Source: Podarcis gaigeae | Taxonomy: Eukaryota | Assembly (NCBI GenBank): GCA_964106915.2 | Contig: OZ066914.1 | Direction: 5' to 3' (one strand) | Length of the DNA stretch: 64,000 nt | In this document: positions 1-61,800 of the stretch, in pieces | How the letters are laid out: the number at the start of each line of letters is the position of its first letter | Position numbering within the stretch: position 1 is the stretch's first letter | Translations under genes and position numbers: made by a program | Notes under the pieces: generated by a model | The model's database searches: none | Told to the model about the DNA's origin: nothing | Seen by the model: the letters and a program-made list of their open reading frames with translations, nothing else

Positions 1-710
1 TTTAACCCTCTTCTGTCCAAACTTCCAATAGTGCCTCTTAAAGTGGTTGTTTGTTGCATTGAATTAGCTTCTGCGGGTGAAATGTTTATGGTCTGAATTA
101 TGCTTGTCTTACCAGTCTACTTGGTTATGCCCTCTGCGCGGACAGACTCCTCTCCTATCTGGGGCTTGGCACACAAAGTGCCCCTATTTTTATCTGTGAA
201 GTGTTGTGAGAGTAAGCTTTAACTATTTAAATAATAATCAAGAAGGCCTTTGCCCTCATTACTAAGACAACAACCATGCACCACCGGCTTCCTCCCAAAA
301 CTCCTGTGCCTTTTAGCAAATGCACAACAGGCAGAAACACAAGGGGGGCAGGGAGCTTTCTCTGCTGCACCATCTCCATGCCAGAAAACACACCATCTGA
401 ACATCTGCCTGTCATGCACAGGGCTGGATTTAGGTTTGATGAGGCCCTAAGCTACTGAAGGTAATGGGGCCCTTTTTTCATCCAGCTGTCCTTTGTCAAC
501 AACAAATTGCCGCTGTTTTTTGTGTTGAATATATGCTATATGGTAATTTATGGACCTAATAGGTATCTAAAGACATTTGCACATAACAAAATATTAAAGT
601 AATTGTTGAACTGAAATACAATTAAGAAGTATATTCATAGTGAAATAATTACAGTATTAAGCTCTAACTTAAAATGATTGGGGGCCCATTACTTACATCA
701 TAGGAGCCTG

Positions 711-945
711 TTACAGATAGGTAGCCGTGTTGGTCTGCCATAGTCAAAACAAAATAAAAAAATTCCTTCCAGTAGCACCTTAAAGACCAACTAAGTTAGT
801 TCTTGGTATGAGCTTTCGTGTGCATGCACACTTCTTCAGATAGTGGTATCTGAAGAAGTGTGCATGCACACGAAAGCTCATACCAAGAACTAACTTAGTT
901 GGTCTTTAAGGTGCTACTGGAAGGAATTTTTTTATTTTGTTTTGA
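711..945. mobile_element. Penelope-like retroelement terminal fragment as an inverted duplication (palindrome)
   Basis: Perfect 99-bp inverted arms 744-842/847-945; TSD ATCATAGGAGCCTG (697-710, 945-958); contains a minimal hammerhead motif; near-identical to 60214-60342. Confidence 0.8.
844..885 (+). ncRNA. Minimal type I hammerhead ribozyme motif
   Basis: Stem I TGGTAT/ATACCA; core CTGAAGA + extra A; stem II GTGTG-CATG-CACAC; GAAA; palindromic stem III AGCT; predicted cleavage after C879 (CUC). Confidence 0.75.
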
Positions 946-1239
946 TCATAGGAGCCTGCACAACACAAAACACTGTTGCTGTATGTACAGTAGATTTTAT
1001 TTGCTTTTATCTTATATTTTGGAAATGTACATCCAGGTTTTTTTCCCTTTACATTTTTTTGGAGAGAGTGGGGCCCTAGCTATAGCTTGTTTAGCTTGTA
1101 CGTAAATCCGGCAGTGGGGAGCTTTCTCTGTTGCACCATCTCCATGCCAGAAAACGCACCATACGAACATCTGCCTGTCACGCAGCTATGGAAAGCCTAG
1201 CAGTGATGAAAAGGACATTCTAAGGTAGCTGCGAGGCTT

Positions 1240-1900
1240 TTATCCAGCTCCCATTTTAGAAACTAAACAGAGCGGAAGAGCGCCTCTCTTCCTCCTCCGC
1301 CACTTCGTCTCTGGACGCTTCAAGCAGAAAGCGGTTGAGCACGAGAACTTCCGCGAAAGTCCGGACGTCTCCCTCTCGGCTGGCGGCGGCGGCACCTGCT
1401 CCAAGCCGAGCCGGCGTCGCTGGGGAAACAAACGGCCGAGGGGCAGCGCCCGCGAGGCGAGTTGCCGCTGAGGGCAGCCCCCTCTGGAGGTACCCAGGCG
1501 CAGGAGCGGATTCAAACCGCCCAATGGAGCGTCAGATAGGGGGCAAGGGCGGGCATAGCGGCGGCCAATGGAGAACGAGGATATTGGGAGGTGTGGCCTG
1601 CGTCGGTGATTTCAAACCCACTTGAGGAGCGGCCCGAGGTTTGCCTTACCGCTTGGCCGGTCGCGGCCTAGGTGAGTACCCGCCGCCTGCATGAGAGGGG
1701 GGCCTCAGCAGGGGCATGGAAAGCGGGGCTTCGGCGAGGACGGCCGGAGCTCCGAGAAAGGCCGTTGCTCTGAGGCGGCCGGGCTCCGCCTCGTCCTTAC
1801 TGCCATTCTGGTCCTCTAGGTGCTGTTCCTCAGGATGGGCTCCACAACACAGCTCCATCCCCACCCCGCTGCTCTTGAGGGGAGGGAGGGTTAGTGATTT
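1240..1900 (+). promoter_or_regulatory. CKAP5: CpG-island promoter of CKAP5 with NF-Y CCAAT boxes, GC box and CHR elements
   Basis: CpG/GC-rich. CCAAT at 1521 and 1565, inverted ATTGG at 1583, GGGCGGG at 1547, and TTCAAA (reverse CHR TTTGAA) at 1511 and 1611, just upstream of a strong donor AG|GTGAGT at 1671/1672. Confidence 0.8.
1620..1671 (+). other. CKAP5: CKAP5 non-coding exon 1 (5' UTR; start approximate)
   Basis: Consensus 5' splice site CTAG|GTGAGT at 1671/1672 immediately downstream of the promoter motifs. The first coding exon has its own acceptor at 14653-14654. Confidence 0.7.
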
Positions 1901-4686
1901 GCGTTTGTTCTTGGTTTTTGTTAAGCATTTTGTGTGTTTTTTTTCTCTTGTATTTTTACTGTTGTGAACCTCGCCGAGATCTACCGATGAAGGGCGGCAT
2001 ACAAATTTATTAAGTAGTAATAATAGCAGCGGCTACCGAAGGCCCTCCACCGATCTCGGCATCGTCTGTAAAACGAGCCCGCGCTCTCTGCACTCTCTCT
2101 GAGGTGCACAGCGGAATAGGGCTTCCCGCTCGAGTCATCTCTAACTGCGTGTGGGCATGCGCTACTGAGGGCTGCAGGTTTGGGATGGGGCGGGGGGAGG
2201 CTCAGCAACTTGCTGTCCGGTGGAAGCCCCATGCTTCCCTAGGCAAACTCACTCACTTGCCTCTCCCCTCCCATCCCTGGTCAAAGGTTAAGCACGGGGC
2301 AGGGGGTAGAATTTTGCTTGCTGCCAGTTGCCCACTTGAGCAAGCAGGTAGTACCAGTCGCTACTAGGAATATACAAAAAGCTCTTGTATTGAGTCAGGT
2401 CACTGGTTCATCTAGCTCAATCTTGTTTGCCCTGACTGGGAGCAACTTTATAGGGGTTCAGGCAGGTGTCCCTACCTGGGACCTTCTGCAGGCAAAGCAG
2501 GGGAGAAGTGAAGGGGAGAAGGCAGTTGAGTGAGCAACTGTAGACACCATACCACTCTGTGCTGCCATTGCTGCTAACTCACTTGCCCAATAGGGTGAGT
2601 GACACTGGTGACTAGAAACAGGACTTGCTTGTCTGTCCTCTCCCTTTCCACCGGTGCTGCTTGCTTGCTGCATGTGTGAGTTGACAGACACTAGAAATTC
2701 CTGTCTGCTTCTCTGAGGGATGAAGAGAGGCTATAACAAGCATTGGTGTTCACAATGTTACATGTACCTAATCTAGAGGGGAAGAGGAGTATAACGTTAA
2801 TACCTTCAGGAGGACCCAATCATGCTACTGTGATGGATACTTCTACAGAAAGGTTGTGGTTGGTAGTGGGCTTTCCTGAGGCCATGGCAGTTGCCAGAAG
2901 AATCTAGCCCTGGGTAGGGGCTTCCCAGAGAAGTAGAGGAACCCCTGATGGCTCTTTGCTCACCCATGACATAGGGAGCAGTGATGAATGCTAGGGTAGC
3001 TGTCACCACTGTGAACCAGTGATGATTGTCAGTAGCTGCTTTTAGGGAGAAGTGGGCAGAGGAGCCCACATCAGCAGTTGCCGTTCCCAGAAACCATTTG
3101 TGTTCACTTGCTCTGGTGCACTAAATGAGCAGCATTGCTAGTCCGCGGTACGAACAGCCTTTCCTTTCTTGGCAGTCGTTGAATGTTGTTGTTGTCAGTT
3201 TGTTCAGGTGAGCTATTGGTGATAGAAATGGCAAACAAGGAACAACCTCCATTCCCTACCCTCCAACGCAAGAGGGTGAAGAAGACAGTGAGCCTTATGG
3301 TGAGGACAGGGGTCCCCTAGACAGCAAGTTGACATGGGCCTATCAAACCTGGAGCTGGTTTTAGTGTAGTAGAGACACTTAGGAACTATTCTGTGAAAGA
3401 TTTTTCCTCCAGTGGGCCTTACATCCAAGTCATTTGCTAGGGTTTCTATGCTTAGAATGTTTATATACCTATAGGTATGAGTGGTTTGATGGGCATTGTT
3501 AGTGCCTTCTACAAAGTGAGATGCACATTAATGCTTATTGTGGGCAATAATACTTGCATATAATCACACACCTAAGAGGTACCCCATTCAAAAAGTCTTG
3601 CTGGATCATATCCAAAGATCCATGTACTATAGTCCAATACCCCCCTTCCTGATGCCTCTGGAAAGCTGACCCTGATCCCCTCCCCTAAAAAAAGTTTCAT
3701 AATTAAGACCTTGAGGTCCTTCAGTTTAAGATACCTGGAGTTATTACTTGTTTATGCAGTATATCTTCATTTGACTTCTCTCTTACCGGGGAAGGCAATA
3801 TTCCTTTTGTAGAAGGAGAGGTATGTTTAAATGCCAGCATCTATGTCCCAAGGAGGATTGGATAAATCCTAGGCATCTGTGCACTTACATATTTTATACT
3901 GACATTTTTATATTGGAGATAATTTGGCTCTGCAATATTGGTAACTACTTACAAAGAGGATAAGCTATTAAAATGTTATATCTGCGCTGACCCTTTCCCT
4001 AGGCACCTGCCCTGTTCTGAAAGCAGCTTTCATCATGGTTGCTAAGTGCACTTTATTCCAGAACTTGGAAAGTCCATAGAACATAATGGATCTTCTATTT
4101 CAGAACATGCTTGTTCTTTTAACACTCTCTAGAACATGTTACAACTTCAAAATGTCTTACTTTGACATTTTTACCCACTATTGCTACTGCACACTTAGAT
4201 ACTCCATTGTTTCTAACAGCAGCTTCTTTATGGTCTAGTAATAACATTTCTTCAAGTCTCCTGCAATCTACTGGTGGGTACCTCTTTCATCATTTAGGAT
4301 AATGAACTGAGAACCTTGAATAGCTTTGTGGGTCTGGACCTGAGGCATTTGCTTTTAATCTCTGAATACAGATACTGTTACACTTCTAGTTCTTACAAGT
4401 AGGTTACCAATTACTGTTTGAAAATGTTTCATCTGAATTTGGTTGCAAATACAGTGAAAACATTTTTTTCTGGATGAAGCAAAAATGTGAATATGTACTG
4501 GAATATTATTCTGCAGACTGCAATTACGTCATACTCTATTCTGTTTATGATTTTGCAGGGTTGGGCTTCACCATTTTAATCATTATTGTTTTGTATTGTA
4601 CCATGCACAAATGTCAAAGGAATTATTTCTGTTTAAGAATATTGTGTTGGTGTATGTGAAATTTCTTGCTCATAGTGTAATGATTT

Positions 4687-5790
4687 AATAATAATAATAA
4701 TAATAATAAATAATAATAAGTTTTTATTTATACCCCCACCCCGCTCTTCCTGGTTCAGAAACCTGTGCTCAGGGCGGCTAACAACAAATTTAAAACACTT
4801 AATTGTAATACAACATAAAAGCAGCATAAAATACAGTATGAAAGCATGAATAACAATAAAATTCAAAGTTCAAAAATCAATTTGAGGGAAATCCATCCAA
4901 TAAACATTAGATAGTCACCAGGGCTAGCTGGCTATATTAGACCTACAGTGGTACCTCGGGTTACAAACGTTTTAGGTTACAGACTCCGCTAACCCAAAAA
5001 TAGTACCTTGGGTTAAGAACTTTGCTTCAGGATGAGAACAGAAATCGTGCAGCGGCAGCGGGAGGCCCCATTAGCTAAAGTGGTACCTCAGGTTGAGAAC
5101 AGTTTCAGGTTAAGAATGGACCTCTGGAACAAATTAAGTTCTTAACCCGAGGTACTATTGTACTTGGGCCAGTGAGGAGGCCAGGGCAGAATTAGCTGTG
5201 GGATCCCAGAGTGGGTAATTTTCATAAAAAAGTGGGGAGGGGGGAAGAGAAGGGAAATAAAAGATCGGGCTGAGTTCAAATTAAAGGCCAGGTGGAATAT
5301 CTCTGTCTTATAGGAGGTTAAATCCTGTAGGGCCCTAGTCTCATGGGACCAGGTCAGAGCCATCACTGAAAAGGCCCTGGCCCTGGTGGAGGATAGTCTG
5401 ACTTCCTTAGGGTCCAGGGCATCTAAACTATGGTTATTCATGGACCTTAAGGTCCTCTGCTGGGCATACCAGGAGAGGCAGTCCCGTAAATACCAGGACC
5501 CTAAGCCACAAGGGGCTTTAAAGGTCAAACCCAGCACCTTGAACCTGACCCTATACTCCACCAGGAGCCAGTGCAGCTGGTAAAGCACTGGGTGAATATG
5601 CTGCCATGGCAGGAACCCCACGAGGAGCCTTGCTGCAGCATTCTGCACCCGCTGGAGTTTCTGGGACAGTTTCAAGGGCAGCCCCACGTAGAGCAAATTA
5701 CAGTAGTCAAGCCTGGAGGTGACCGTCGCATGGATCACTGTGGCCAGATCAGGGCAGGAGAGGTAAGGGACCAACTGCTTAATGCGGCGA
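4687..5790 (-). mobile_element. L2-clade LINE 3' fragment (RT C-terminal region, 3' UTR and (TTA)n tail)
   Basis: ORF 5142..5816 encodes LATVIHATVTSRLDYCNLLYVGLP...LQRVQNAAARLL...LHWL, typical of L2/CR1-group ORF2 C-termini; TAA-repeat tail at 4687-4718. Confidence 0.85.
4946..5160. mobile_element. Tc1/mariner (Tigger-like) MITE nested in the L2 fragment
   Basis: TA|CAGTGGTACCTCGGGTTA ... TAACCCGAGGTACTATTG|TA; same family as 31911 and 52018. Confidence 0.85.
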
Positions 5791-6929
5791 AGATTATCAG
5801 TGTTAATGACAATCACTAATAGACACTCCCCCCAAAAAACTATTACTAGCTTTATGTATGTATTTATTTACTACAAGCATTTCCACTTAGGAACTCAAGG
5901 CAGTGTGCATGATTCACCCTCTTTTTATCTTCTCAACAACCCTGTGAGGTATATGACACAGGCCCAATGTTGCCCAGTGAGCTTCATGGTTTAGTGGGGA
6001 TTTGAACCCTGGTCTCTCAGGTTTGACAGTCATACACATTCATTCCAGCAGACTGAATGAAAACTAATTGTTTTTGCAGTGGTTAATGCTGTTTCCTTCT
6101 ACTTTGTGGATGTTGATTTGTTTATTAACTTTGGTGTTTCCACCTGGTAAGTTATTGTTAAAAGGGGAATTATGGTTACACAGAACTTGAATGCATTTCA
6201 GAAGCATGGAAACATGCTAAGGATGTTCCTATTCTTCTCGACTTCTATTTTAAAAATAAATCTTGTTTGAGGTGCTTTCTCCTTGCTGTAGGGTACTGCA
6301 GACATTTGCAGCCATAAAGGGTAGAGCTTACCTAATTTCTCTGACAATGACCTAGTTGCTGATTTCTGTAGTACTGTCTATTAAAGCTGTGAAATGGCAC
6401 GTGCAAATTAAGTGGTTGTTGCAGTATTTATCCTTGACTGGTATTAGGATTATGAGCTTCATTTTACTATTGTAGGTGGAAAGCATTTCAGCATACTGAT
6501 GTGTGTTTGTGTGCACCTTTCATTATGTTCCTTTGAGGTTAGGTGATTGTAAGAAGGCAGGAAAACCAAGCTTTGATGCTTATATAAAACACGTGATTCT
6601 AACAAAGCATTGAGTAGTGCTACAGAACGCTGAGCAGTTAAAGGTGTCTCCTGAACAGAATTGTAAATTTGAGGAAAGTTGTTGCACTTTGAACAGCTCC
6701 TATAAGGCAAGACGTTGTAGTTGGTCCTTCTTAGGGAGATGGGCCTCTGGACGTTTTTCAAAGGCCACTTATTTTGGCTTACCCAGCGCAATGTTACAAA
6801 AAATGTTTACTCGAAAGCAGTTGGAGGCAGAGTAGTTCTTTTCGCAATTAAACGTATGCTTGCGGATTCTGTTTCGGACCACTATTTTTAACAGGTTCAA
6901 TTTACGGCCCCTCGTACAGAGATCACACA

Positions 6930-7850
6930 TAAGCACAACCCTGTACATACCGTCGGGCTCCTCGCCCCGCGGGATCAGCAAGACCTAAGATACACGGAAG
7001 CCTCTTCAGGAGCTCACCCGTCAAGCTAGCTAGTCTGAACATCAGTGGACGACTGGCCTTCCTGGTCAGGCCTCTTTTTCAGCTTGAGAACCCGTCTGCG
7101 ACAGAAAGGGAATCAAAAAGGCTTGCGAACTGGTTAGGGTGGGGACCCTCCGCGGCGCGGAAGCCTCGGTAGAAGCGCTCTGCCTCTCTGATCGGGGGTG
7201 GGGGAGAGCAAAGGGGCGGAGTGCGCGCATGGTCTGTCCGGGGCAGGGATCCCTGCCTTTGTTTGTCACATGGCCCGGGGAAGGCCCTTAGCTCAGGTGC
7301 GGCGGGAGGCGGAGGTTGGTGTCGCCGGCTGCGACGCGCCCCGCCCTTGGGGGAGGCGCCTCCTTCTCTGCCGGTCGGAGATGCAGCTCTCCGCCCGCTC
7401 CTGCTGCTAAGCCGGGCCGCGGTTGCTGGGCAAGCGAGAGTCCGGCCTAGTCCGGCCTGGGGGAAGGCGACGTTGTCCGGCGCCCGCTGCAAGGTAGGGC
7501 GGCGGCACTGGTGGCGAGGCCTAAACCCCCAGGGTGAAGGCCAGCTGGGGCGGGCGACTGTCATAAACAATGCCGGGAGAGCGGCCTGCTGCCCCGCTGC
7601 ATTGGGTGGCCAAGTTGTACCGAGCAGCGTCTCTCGGTCGGTCGGTCCGGCTGGCGAGCGGCGTCGGCCGATTTGTTGTGCTGGTGGTTGTAGATGTCGA
7701 CTGGCTCCGAGCTGCAGTAACTGGGGAAATGTGGCCCTGCTGGGCATAGAGCGGGAAACGGTGTCTGGGGAGCCTTCGGCAATTCCTGTCGCAGGGGAAA
7801 GGGACGTGCGTAAGTATAGACCGGCAATGTGATCTGGGACAGAAAGGGGA
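6930..7850 (+). promoter_or_regulatory. Second CpG island in CKAP5 intron 1; candidate alternative promoter/first exon
   Basis: High CpG density that I do not recognise as a repeat. GC box GGGGCGGAGT at 7213, X-box-like GTTGCTGGGCAAG at 7422, donor AAG|GTAGGG at 7493/7494. Confidence 0.6.
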
Positions 7851-9656
7851 TCCTTGACAGGGAAGGGATTCGGATCATCTTTTGAGATTCCCCTGTATGT
7901 GTTTGGAAGACGCTGGGGTGAGGTGGGGTGGCATGGGCGCGAGATTGTATTGAATGAAGAAGGCCTGTGTCAGGAATCCCCAACATCGAGCGCTTGAGCA
8001 TTTGAACGGAGTTGTTATGTTATGCTGTTCTACTCTGTGAATGTTCACAACAACAACGCTGGCCCTATTTCAGGGTGCTTGCTTTTTATGCTTCATAGGA
8101 ATTTTTATTCTTTGAAATTTAAACCAGGGATTCTTAATTTTTGACTCTCCAGATGTTGGACTACAACTCCCACTAGAAATCAAGCAGGGACTATCTCTGT
8201 TTGAGATCCCTGGTTTAAAAGGTTTTTCAGGAAGTCCTTGTGTTATGAACTTGTTCTAATGTTTTCTACGTTCTGATGTTGTAACTTAAGCATTAAATTC
8301 AATCTGTTGTATGTTTTGCTCTTTCCTGTAAACAGCTGTGAGATACATATTAAAAAGTGGGGTATAAAAATCTTAATCATCCCTGACTGGTCATGTTAAC
8401 TGGAATCCAACATCTGGAAGGCCACAGCCTAGGCAAACTTATTTGAAGCTTTTTGTATCTGTGGTGCTTTGCAGAGCATTTTTTTAATTAAAAAAATGAT
8501 TTCTTGAATAAAAAAAAGTGTTATCTTGCCTCCATGTCAGTGACATTCACACATGCATGTAAATACTAGGGCAAGATGCAGGGCTCTACAGCATTAATTA
8601 GATTTTAGAAAATAAGAGGTACTCGTGGTGAACCTATATTAGTTTCACTAGAACAGGGTTGGGGAACAAATGGGACTTCCAGCTAGCATTGTAAATGGTT
8701 GTGGATGATAGGTAGCATTGTTCAACACCATCTGAAGGACCATGGGCTCCCCACCCTGTTTCCAGGACTTAGTCATAGAGCCTACCTAGAATGTTTCCAT
8801 GTAACAGCTCCTGAATGCAGATGCAGTCAGGTAGAACAACTCTTATTTGGAAGGAAATGTGATTTAAAATAAGTTGTGGAAAAACTCAGTAAGCAGAGTG
8901 GCAGTGAATAGAGGCAAGTGGTCCTGTCTCAGCATAAGGATTCTCTGTTTTCTCTCTTGTTGTGTAAACAACTTGCCTTGCTTCTGCAAGTGGTGGGAGT
9001 GTTCTTTTCTTGCGCTCCTCTTCATAAAAAAGACTTCCAGGGATGTATTGTATCCCAATTTGGTACAAAATTTGAGGAATTATTTTTGGGGGATTACAGT
9101 ACAAGTTTTTGAAAATGGTACCAAACAATATTTTAAAAGGCTTGTAACAACAAGCAGTTCCTAGAGTTATAGCAGAATTCCATAATGTTTACCCAGAAAC
9201 AAGTCTCACGACCCCATGCTTCAATTTTAAGACTGTTACAAAAGTTGGGTGCCTCCCACTCTCTCTGCTGGGTGGTGGCAAAAGCCCATGGGGATTGAGA
9301 CACAGCAGAGACTGTTGTAGCTTTAAGAAATATGGGTTAGAAAATAAGAGGTACTCGTGGAGAACCTATATTAGTTTCACTAGAACAGGGTTCAAATAGC
9401 TTCAAATAAGTTTCCCTTCAATCTGCATTGAGGGAGTCCAGATCTTACAGCATGGTTATTTTAAGAGAGGCTTGTATCCCACAGCAGTGCAGCTCTGGAG
9501 TCCAAGTCATCTCTCCCAGTAATTTTCTCAGCCAGCCTGTCCAAAAAACGGCTCCCAACCCTTCTTCATCCTCCTTCTCAGAACCCCTTACTACCAGACT
9601 CCCTTTTCCTGTCACCTCAAACCTTGTTTCGCTGGCGACCCTCCAAATCCCTAGTC

Positions 9657-14685: not shown

Positions 14686-55478
<40,793 letters not shown>

Positions 55479-58832: not shown

Positions 58833-61800
58833 CTGGAGAGAGGAGAGTGCAAGAGCACCAAGGAAGAGTCAGCATACTGGGAGAAAGCATATAGGTCACA
58901 TAAAGAGGGCAAGCAGCAGCAGGACTCTCTACAGTGGTGGCCCGCAAGACGAACGCCTTGCAAGACGGAAAACCCGCTAGACGAAAGGGTTTTCCGTTTT
59001 GGAGGCGCTTCGCAAAACGAATTTCCCTATGGGGTTGCTTCGCAAGACGAAAAAATATTGCGTCCCCCGGCGGTTTTTTTCCGCTTTTTTTCGCCCTTTT
59101 CTTAAGCCGCTAAGCCGCTTATCAGCTGTTCCGCTGATAAGCCGCTTAACAGCTGATCGCTAGAAGCCGCTAGACCGCGGTAGCGCTAATCCGCTAAGCT
59201 GTCAATGGGCTTGCTTCGCAAGACGAAAAAACCGCTAGACGAAGAGAATCGCGGAACGAATTCTTTTCGTCTAGCGAAGCACCACTGTATTTCAAAACTT
59301 TCAGAGCCCATAGAAGGTCCAGATCCAGGTATTTCTTACAGTGGAGCTTTATGAGTTATCTCTTTTCTAAAAGGAAATCTCACCCTTAATCGTAAAGATG
59401 TGGGATGGGGGGCTTGTTGCCCAACAATGCATGTGAGGATTGACTTACCAATATAAATCGGATCCACAAGCTTCTTTCTGTGTCAGGTGGAAAGCTCCCC
59501 CCCACCTCCATGGAGGGTAGCATTCACTCAGGGCTGTAACAAGTGACCTGCTGACAGTGGGAGGGACTGAAGCCCATAGGGGGTAGGGCCAACCAGTCTC
59601 CATCCTGCCCAGCAGACTGCCAAATGACGAAGAGGTTTCTCTTGCCAGAGGCTGAAGTGATTGCTTTGTTTACTAGGCTCCCTGCATCCTTGCTGAAATG
59701 TGAGCACTGTTCCTCTATCATTGATCCAGTATTTTAAGCTCGGGGGCCACCAAAGAAGTCATGACATATGTCACCCTTTTGCTGCCACTTGAGATTGATG
59801 TATTACGTCACTTGGAGCATTACACATACCTTCATGACAAAAGGGCCTCCACTGTCACCTTCGCAGGCATCTCCTCTTTGAGAATCTTCAGGGCTGTACC
59901 CTAAACAACAAGAAAAGGCATTTGAGGTTGACACTAGTGAATTCAATCTCTTCTGTTTTCCTTTTGCTGCTTTTCACCTTCTGATACTTAATCTTTTAGA
60001 AATCAGTGCCTGTGTACTGCCTTCTCAAGCAACCAGAAATATTTTCCCAGAAAGTGGGGATCAGCCCTTAGTTAACTAAAACTGGGATCTAGCTCCATAA
60101 ATTTCCCTGTTGCTTTCACTATTCTTCCATTTATTGTCATTTCAGTATGATTGGATTGGACTGTGTGTTTCTGTACAGCAATGTGAGGTAGATCAGATAT
60201 GCTAGGGGACCCAGTTACAGATAGGTAGCCGTGTTGGTCTGCCATAGTCAAAACAAAAAAAATTCCTTCCAGTAGCACTTTAAAGACCAACTAAGTCAGT
60301 TCTTGGTATGAGCTTTCGTGTGCATGCACACTTCTTCAGATACTAGGGGACCCAGTTATGGATCTCTGCAGCCTATTTTTATCACTCCATGTATTTGCTT
60401 CACCATGTGTATATCTGCCTCATATGTACAGGATACAAGCAAAATACCTGCTAAACGTATGAAGCACTCCTGTCTCACCTCTTGAGCTTCAGCCTACTTT
60501 GTGTTTCTTCTTAGCTGAGCTTTGTCAAAGGCACAGCCTGGTGTCTAGCCTGGATTTTCATCACACTGCCCACATGAATACATTATTTCCTCTCCCCACC
60601 CCAGGCTGGGAGTTCCTGGCCTGTTGCAATTTTGCTCAGGGCCTGGTGCTAGCTTGGCCAAGTTTCTCACCTGACTGGTGGTCCCTTCCTTAGCATTAAA
60701 TTAGAGGACATCATGTAGGCTTATGGGTCTTCCTATTTTGTGCAGCAGCTTCACTTGGGGAACAGTACTAGCCAGACCAAAGGGAAATATCCCTCCCTTA
60801 GACACAGCTGGAGGCCTATGAGGTATTACCCAGTTTGTGAGGGGACGCCACTTGTCAAGATTCTCCAGTCTGGGAGTTCAGATTGTCACCAGCCAAAGGG
60901 ATTGGTGGTAGGAGTATTTATATGGCGAAGGAGAGTTCCGGCTGTCTTACAGTGGTAATCATCTCTCATCCCAGTTCAGATTGGCTCATACTCTCCTTCC
61001 CTTGAAACATGTGGCTTGGGCTCACTTCCAGTTGAAATTGTTAGCATTTCCTTCAGTCTTCCCAACCACACAGATACATAACCTCACCAGTTTCTCCCTC
61101 AGTTGAAAGAACGTATCAGATGCTAAAGAAAACGTACCTGCACAGAACATGTTGTCTGTGACTCTAATCTTGGTGGATGCCTTGCAAGTTTCCCTTGGCA
61201 CAATAGGGAGGTTCACCTGCTGTAGTATGCCAGGCAGAGGTGACCTGCCAGAGGTCCATGTCTCTTGTAGGTTTCCCCAACCAGTCACACGCCCTTTGTA
61301 TCCCGTTAGCATCAGGCTACAGAACAAAAAACAACACAAACCCCAGTAGCTTAAAATCATTTTGGCTGACATTTGTAGGCAAAACATGTTTCCTTTTGTT
61401 ATGTATATGTAATGGTTTGTCTTAATCCTAATTACACTGCTCCAAACAAAAAACTGGTGTCTCTTGTGTGTGCTGAATTCTTCAGCAGAGACCAGGGTGC
61501 TACAGGAAGGAAGGCACCCATGGTGAAGTCCTCTGTAGGTATCTAGAGCACATAGGAAAGGAAGCAAGGCTAGACTCCAGCAATAAATGGCAAGTTACAT
61601 CAAACAGGATGTTTCCATTTTGCTCTTTGCAAAATCCCGAGTTTTCCAGACTGGCTGTGCTCTCATTGTATTTCTTCAACTGTGGGAATAGAAACACTCC
61701 TTAAACACACACTGTCTGTCTCATGTGCGCATGACCCCTGGCCTACAAGGTGCAATGGCTGTGGATGTACAAACCACGCATACTTTACTCTGCATTCGGC

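Follow-up and report, generated by a model that had tools for sequence, protein, structure and literature searches.

Insertions of EN+ Penelope-like elements (PLEs) have been described as head-to-head repeats with a one-sided tail of 30-40 bp and a short target-site duplication (TSD), 8-10 bp in the rotifer examples, with the first ORF codons in the tail and a TATA box and initiator-like motifs in the pLTR; the inversion is explained by self-priming or left open, and no pile-up of ends at a transcription start site is reported in the accessible parts of these articles (PMC3846280, PMC8557442). The way in which PLEs form tandem and inverted structures has been called undefined (PMC8557442). Their minimal hammerhead ribozymes, a form that was defined by its own descriptor, showed no cutting in vitro as single units and weak cutting as dimers, and close opposite-strand hammerhead pairs and reptile examples are also mentioned (PMC4209133). 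In PAc, the Poseidon element of Anolis carolinensis, both target strands are cut in vitro and extended from two internal sites without a need for ribozyme cutting, uncut RNA being the main template; the hammerhead depended on the element protein for cutting, and the protein in turn required an RNA that included the initial 172 nt of its ORF (PMC11167929). Neither head-to-head products nor genomic RNA 5' run-off are treated in the accessible part of that study. Animal non-LTR retrozymes are hammerhead-bearing derivatives of PLEs, with an average unit of 176 bp in reptiles (bioRxiv 10.64898/2026.07.22.740005). Statements on these systems, here and below, refer to the accessible parts of the sources cited.

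The window, i.e. the whole stretch of 64,000 nucleotides of Podarcis gaigeae DNA that was analysed, carries at 697-958 an insertion of this known kind, since the layout of an inverted repeat with one tail and a TSD has already been described for PLEs. The features of the locus, of a second family copy in the window and of a parent element elsewhere in the genome are as follows.

419..1116, no strand: host element, a MITE of ~450 bp which we take to be hAT-like, with short terminal inverted repeats, split by the insertion (from read depth, a 25-mer and the termini)
697..710, + strand: left copy of the TSD, 14 bp, ATCATAGGAGCCTG, single in 29/29 paralogous host-repeat loci
711..743, - strand: one-sided tail with the outer copying start site, the first ATG of the ORF (741-739) and the first codons (match to the pLTR/ORF junction of the parent)
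744..842, - strand: left arm, a pLTR stub with a hammerhead core and a 3-bp stem I (exact inverted repeat)
843..846, no strand: junction spacer GTGG between the two arm copies (junctions vary among family copies)
844..885, + strand: minimal type I hammerhead, predicted to cut after C879 (core read base by base; no Rfam match)
847..944, + strand: right arm, a pLTR stub that ends at the inner T-rich copying start site and has no tail
945..958, + strand: right copy of the TSD
60215..60342, + strand: second, single-armed family copy with a tail, an end at the ribozyme 5' edge and a target duplication of its own
L084, G000:C17:77539000-77548999: parent element, a 921-aa RT and GIY-YIG frame between two repeats

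The two target copies are identical and their extension is impossible, and because the paralogous empty sites at the 29 other fetched loci hold the sequence once, the 14-bp duplication noted in the preliminary description is confirmed. The insert, described there as about 235 bp, spans 711-944 (234 bp), and its perfect 99-bp inverted repeat with a 4-nt spacer is present as described (744-842 and 847-945, spacer GTGG); the outermost base of the repeat belongs to the right target copy too, so that the element part is 98 bp. That account holds as far as it goes and had overlooked the host MITE and the one-sided tail, i.e. the 33 nt at 711-743 that lack a partner in the right arm. Over 711-842, a single substitution and a gap of 5 nt separate the window from the parent.

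The host segment shows very high read depth in 4/4 sequencing runs, and a 25-mer of the MITE has 489 exact matches in the genome; 30 loci were fetched, one of which is the present locus. The MITE is considered hAT-like because two paralogues, L263 and L273, have exact 8-bp duplications. Instead of such an 8-bp duplication, a 68-bp direct repeat (351-418 and 1117-1184, 93% identical) flanks the MITE here, perhaps a repair-linked duplication that predates the Penelope insertion. In all four runs, contigs pass from the unique flank into both ends of the MITE; they cover 26-33 letters of it at the left end, and at the right end only X3 and X4 do so. Among the pieces listed none bridges the insertion, the region being swamped by paralogous repeats. 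No RNA run was listed as containing the sequence, a result that carries no information about expression.

By DNA search, the genome gave 290 candidates, and the 40 that were scored include family copies at 95-99% identity, the nearest at 99%. A 27-mer of the arm has 15,948 exact matches in the genome, and on each strand there are 1,214 matches to head-to-head fusions with cores at most 30 nt apart, some few of the loci being counted twice; as the reversed-pattern controls have no genome match, hits to the palindrome and hammerhead patterns are not due to chance. With 1,214 comparable fusion matches in the same genome, the locus is not special. Longer family copies run on into a GIY-YIG coding region, and the element terminus is present in 18/20 fetched GIY-YIG loci. 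In the parent, L084, the 921-aa open frame (RVT_1 E 1e-11, GIY-YIG E 8e-6) is flanked by direct pLTRs as a partial tandem (5331-5205 and 2321-2223), and RVT_1 and GIY-YIG both lie above the Pfam cut-off in L084, L085 and L086. The insert is almost certainly a PLE stub: the copy-number and parent searches that had been proposed lead to an element with RT and GIY-YIG domains carrying this exact terminus, in agreement with the Penelope-like origin suggested earlier.

The RT-EN linker of the parent protein (P0001) holds a CX4CxxC motif, CNKPRCQLC, and a CX2-5CxxC motif at this position is the mark of Neptune and Nematis (PMC8557442); by its sequence, the parent appears to be an EN+ PLE with a Neptune/Nematis-type linker. 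At one of the two GIY-YIG-internal cysteine positions L084 has R, and L043 encodes C there. The insertion had also been called very young and non-autonomous. A fairly recent age agrees with the identical arms and the nearest scored copy at 99%; the idea of a non-autonomous family propagating in palindromic form does not stand. A MITE or palindromic element moving as a unit was rejected, as spacers, arm lengths and junctions differ among the copies, and the differing junctions imply that each hairpin was likely made anew at integration.

With its 33-nt tail, an inverted 5'-truncated copy and the 14-bp TSD, the palindrome has the layout of an EN+ PLE insertion; the unpaired 33 nt hold the ATG and first codons of the ORF and thus constitute a PLE tail, and TATA and initiator-like motifs occur in the pLTR as in the described insertions (PMC3846280, PMC8557442). 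In contrast to the latter, both arms here consist of the terminal 100-135 nt only, and the TSD is 14 bp instead of 8-10 bp. The likeness to PAc lies in two internal RT start sites, by which the tail is defined, in a predicted dimer and, under the mechanism proposed below, in extension of both strands and uncut RNA as the main template; the present element differs in belonging to another clade, in having its hammerhead wholly upstream of the ATG and in having start sites that flank the ATG (PMC11167929). The locus is an inverted pair, unlike the tandem arrays of retrozymes, and therefore provides no same-strand dimer.

The head-to-tail tandem that distinguishes non-LTR retrozymes, absent from this head-to-head locus, is present at L013-L015 (G000:C24:33609383-33609861), where three head-to-tail units of 175 bp, against the reptile retrozyme average of 176 bp (bioRxiv 10.64898/2026.07.22.740005), are followed by a palindrome. 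Each unit comprises a hammerhead, a tail and ~45 more ORF bases, a retrozyme-like array of the same family. At L045/L046 (G000:C1 near 2195200), a young palindromic stub lies within an older, more diverged copy of the family.

The right-arm hammerhead consists of stem I (844-849/880-885), CTGAAGA (850-856), an extra A857, stem II (858-862/867-871), GAAA (872-875) and GCTC (876-879). The core CUGANGA, GAAA and UH, stems I and II and a palindromic stem III are all found, in accordance with the earlier reading of a minimal type I hammerhead with a core that is complete on both strands, stem I being 6 bp long on the + strand and 3 bp in the - strand copy. The native stem I of the parent has 4 bp, and the 6-bp stem is an accident of the junction, which supplies the two outer pairs; the junction differs by one G from that in six of the first 30 loci (L005, L009, L010, L023, L024, L026), and stem I therefore reaches 6 bp. 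The 4-bp stem I of the parent, the long stem II, the extra base after A9, the G-C closing pair and the palindromic stem III are features of the minimal hammerheads of PLE pLTRs, from which the junction-made 6-bp stem I of the locus departs (PMC4209133). The Rfam search that had been proposed gave no hammerhead at E<=10: for window positions 1-5000 there were 24 matches, all below the gathering score and mainly miRNA hairpin models on the palindrome, and for the parent repeat one chance match.

According to folding predictions, the right arm alone forms stem II with a probability of 0.97 and stem I with 0.4-0.7, whereas the pair probability of stem II falls to ~1e-19 once a single RNA contains both arms. 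The hammerhead fold in read-through RNA is thus predicted to have a near-zero probability, the ribozyme being buried in the 99-bp duplex, and the masking of the ribozyme by the long hairpin, put forward in the preliminary description, is what folding predicts. The predicted stability of the hairpin is -195 kcal/mol as RNA and -121 as DNA. Co-folding of the native ribozyme dimer gave pairing through the stem II palindrome and not the catalytic dimer, and minimum-energy folding is a poor test here.

The origin of such stubs was examined from the positions at which arms start and end in the family. Element positions (eNNN) are numbered as in the left arm of the window and continued along the parent past 842; the first 30 loci, which are biased to the junction of the query, were left out of the end statistics. 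In a sample made of the first 100 listed 27-mer matches, mapped against the parent and restricted to one subfamily and to the initial 5.2 Mb of a single contig, 46 arms start at e711-713, 53 at e741-767 and one in between; seven end at or before e805, four at e806-813, 19 at e814-835, 46 at e836-852 and 24 further on, the commonest ends being e845 (11) and e843 (10). The ends thus pile up at a distance of 3-7 nt on the 5' side of the CUGAAGA core. Of 12,607 matches that extend to e843 in the whole genome, 4,723 extend to e847, so that 62% of the copies at the ribozyme 5' edge depart from the parent within 4 nt, a loss far above that expected from a copy divergence of 3-5%.

A TATA box is present in the parent, with its first T at -30 relative to the A of TCAGT (e846). 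Genome-wide, e843 is followed by the A of the parent in 8,884 cases, by C in 2,438 and by G or T in 1,285, which amounts to a 3.8-fold excess of C per base over G/T. Reverse transcriptases add untemplated C opposite the 5' cap. The extra C does not stem from a subfamily, since 41 extra-C arms at 40 fetched loci continue with 25 different triplets; in some single-armed copies (L233, L235) the extra C also matches the target. Single-armed copies begin at either start site. Taken together, the pile-up of ends, the TATA box at -30 and the excess C point to run-off at the 5' end of an RNA started at the element promoter, and as the modal ends are e843 and e845 rather than e846, the start site is spread or the ends are trimmed. 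At L158, L214 and L221, arms ending at e843 pass over into the ORF at a point 60-90 nt downstream of the ATG; the cDNA could here have switched to another template on reaching the RNA 5' end, and partial tandems could begin in this way.

The relation between the two arms of a copy was examined in 26 two-armed pairings (27 found, one dropped for spanning two adjacent insertions). Exactly one tail is present in 25/26 (p 8e-7), and most pairs have common flanking strings of 9-15 bp, by which the 14-bp duplication is typical. A T/C variant of ~50% frequency agrees between the arms in 24/25 position-ordered pairs and in 74/76 of all loci, with ~50% expected, and both discordant pairs are complex loci. 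Two RNA templates drawn at random are rejected by this agreement; the shared variants could instead reflect one dominant source locus at a time, or conversion between arms. The tail is on the short arm at L066, L070, L072, L075 and L077 and on the long arm at L082 and L085, and at L088 both arms are long; since the five former loci, which bear the endonuclease, combine a short tailed arm with a long untailed one, neither arm was copied from the other. In the nine two-armed loci that reach the endonuclease, which were chosen for holding GIY-YIG and exclude the complex L069, 0/9 partner arms end in the pile-up zone (p ~0.004): eight go past it and one stops short. This fits a read-through RNA that has no 5' end in the zone, as expected where the zone marks an RNA end, and it fits a fixed stall poorly.

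From these patterns, the stub was probably made by both strands of a staggered cut priming on one uncut RNA, with both copies running off its presumably capped 5' end. The element protein would cut both target strands ~14 nt apart; one 3' end would prime at the outer site, ~30 nt into the ORF, and the other at the inner T-rich site ahead of the ATG. The template would be an RNA begun at the element's own promoter, each copy would hit its 5' end after 100-135 nt, often gaining a C opposite the cap, and end joining would then fuse the two copies head to head with a short filler. The in vitro reaction of PAc, outlined above, provides a precedent for two-strand cutting, for extension from two internal sites and for uncut RNA as template (PMC11167929). 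On balance, though with less assurance, most copies of the family may have arisen in this way, one complex priming both break ends at two sites on a single uncut RNA with cap run-off just upstream of the hammerhead, and long, transposition-competent copies deriving from read-through RNA only. A literature search, with most subscription papers and key supplements outside its scope, returned no statement of start-site run-off or of twin priming in PLEs.

Other routes to the same structures were weighed against this one. The ends at the ribozyme 5' edge might mark a 3' splice site, or a stall of the reverse transcriptase on a folded or protein-bound hammerhead; the parent does have a pyrimidine tract and CAG, a possible splice acceptor, directly before stem I, and in the Drosophila virilis Penelope the 5' end of helix I is where an intron stops (PMC4209133). 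However, the 41 arms examined share no common upstream exon, the TATA spacing is canonical, the excess of C is not predicted, and the partners of long arms pass the zone in 8/9 cases and stop before it in 1/9, which makes this reading unlikely. A single cDNA that folds and copies itself back into a second arm, related to the self-priming on an antisense template proposed in PMC3846280, would account for the identity of the arms (74/76) and the single tail (25/26), and the 19 of 100 arms that end at e814-835 do so in the self-complementary stem III and stem II. The short tailed and long untailed arms of L066, L070, L072, L075 and L077 refute fold-back as the sole route, single-armed copies beginning at either site also speak against it, and as the source of the stubs it is a little less likely again than splicing or stalling.

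The stubs could also derive from RNA cut by the ribozyme, in which case the family would be a record of hammerhead activity in vivo. An exact departure from the parent at the cut site is seen in 72 arms, compared with 26 and 34 for the sites two bases to either side, and one pair ends at e808/e809 on both arms. These 72 are, however, ~0.5% of the arms, in a pattern that sees ~9/16 of random ends; 31 continue with CT, explicable by a GTAT overlap with the partner (9/16 CT arms inspected continue CTGAAGAAG), and 14 continue with AC, a self-palindrome. With these partner-overlap classes removed the remaining 27 are at control level, so that cut RNA would contribute at most ~1% of the arms, a small class being possible, and the arms of the present locus read through the cut site. 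As a general source of the stubs, cut RNA is extremely unlikely.

If the preferred reading of twin-primed run-off is true, the genome keeps thousands of records of the transcription start of the element, and one rule explains solo hammerheads, head-to-head pairs and the one-sided tail. It predicts that capped RNA begins 3-7 nt ahead of the core of the ribozyme, two coordinated start sites used by opposite strands, and uncut template RNA. The locus itself is minor, one among thousands of stubs, and the family statistics are more informative: they bear on the origin of tandem and inverted PLE structures and suggest a reason for the many solitary minimal hammerheads in metazoan genomes.

Whether the insertion affects its neighbours is a separate matter. 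The downstream gene has XMAP215/TOG exons (Pfam) with a candidate ATG exon at 14686, a PDB search with one exon giving only a weak Stu2 match (E 0.006), and is presumably CKAP5 by orthology; LDL-receptor class B and EGF exons upstream on the + strand belong to what we take to be LRP4. Ahead of this ATG exon lie two CpG islands, at about 1000-2000 and about 6500-8000; either may start CKAP5, and the insertion lies just upstream of the first of these. The hypothesis that CKAP5 or the upstream gene is influenced by the insertion, through self-cleaving RNA, dsRNA or a cruciform, can draw on this position, between the upstream + strand exons and the island, on the intact core, on the folding of stems I and II in the right arm alone and on the great stability of the hairpin. 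Against it stand the near-zero stem II pairing with both arms, the 1,214 comparable hairpin matches genome-wide, the failure of single minimal hammerheads to cut in vitro and the weakness of dimers (PMC4209133), and the dependence of the anole hammerhead on the element protein (PMC11167929), and such a function is very unlikely. The stub ends short of the TATA box and contains no more than 11 codons of the ORF, which, with the need of the anole protein for 172 nt of its ORF, indicates that it is likely silent and immobile. For the palindrome, inertness is predicted; read-through or antisense RNA, editing or the extrusion of a cruciform could conceivably still have effects. Caution is advisable in scans, where palindromes of this sort are picked up as microRNA-like hairpins or as intact ribozymes without being functional.

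Some further observations may be added. In the first CpG island (1001-2000), the CCAAT box and the TTCAAA motif occur twice each and there is a splice donor near 1671; by the usual meaning of these motifs, the island presumably resembles a cell-cycle promoter. In L063, the segment 2768-3781 is CpG-rich and lies amid LDL-receptor-type exons; both of its strands have long open frames, for which Pfam gave no match. At 5142-5867 on the - strand of the window, an open stretch of 241 aa resembles what we take to be a C-terminal fragment of a LINE reverse transcriptase.
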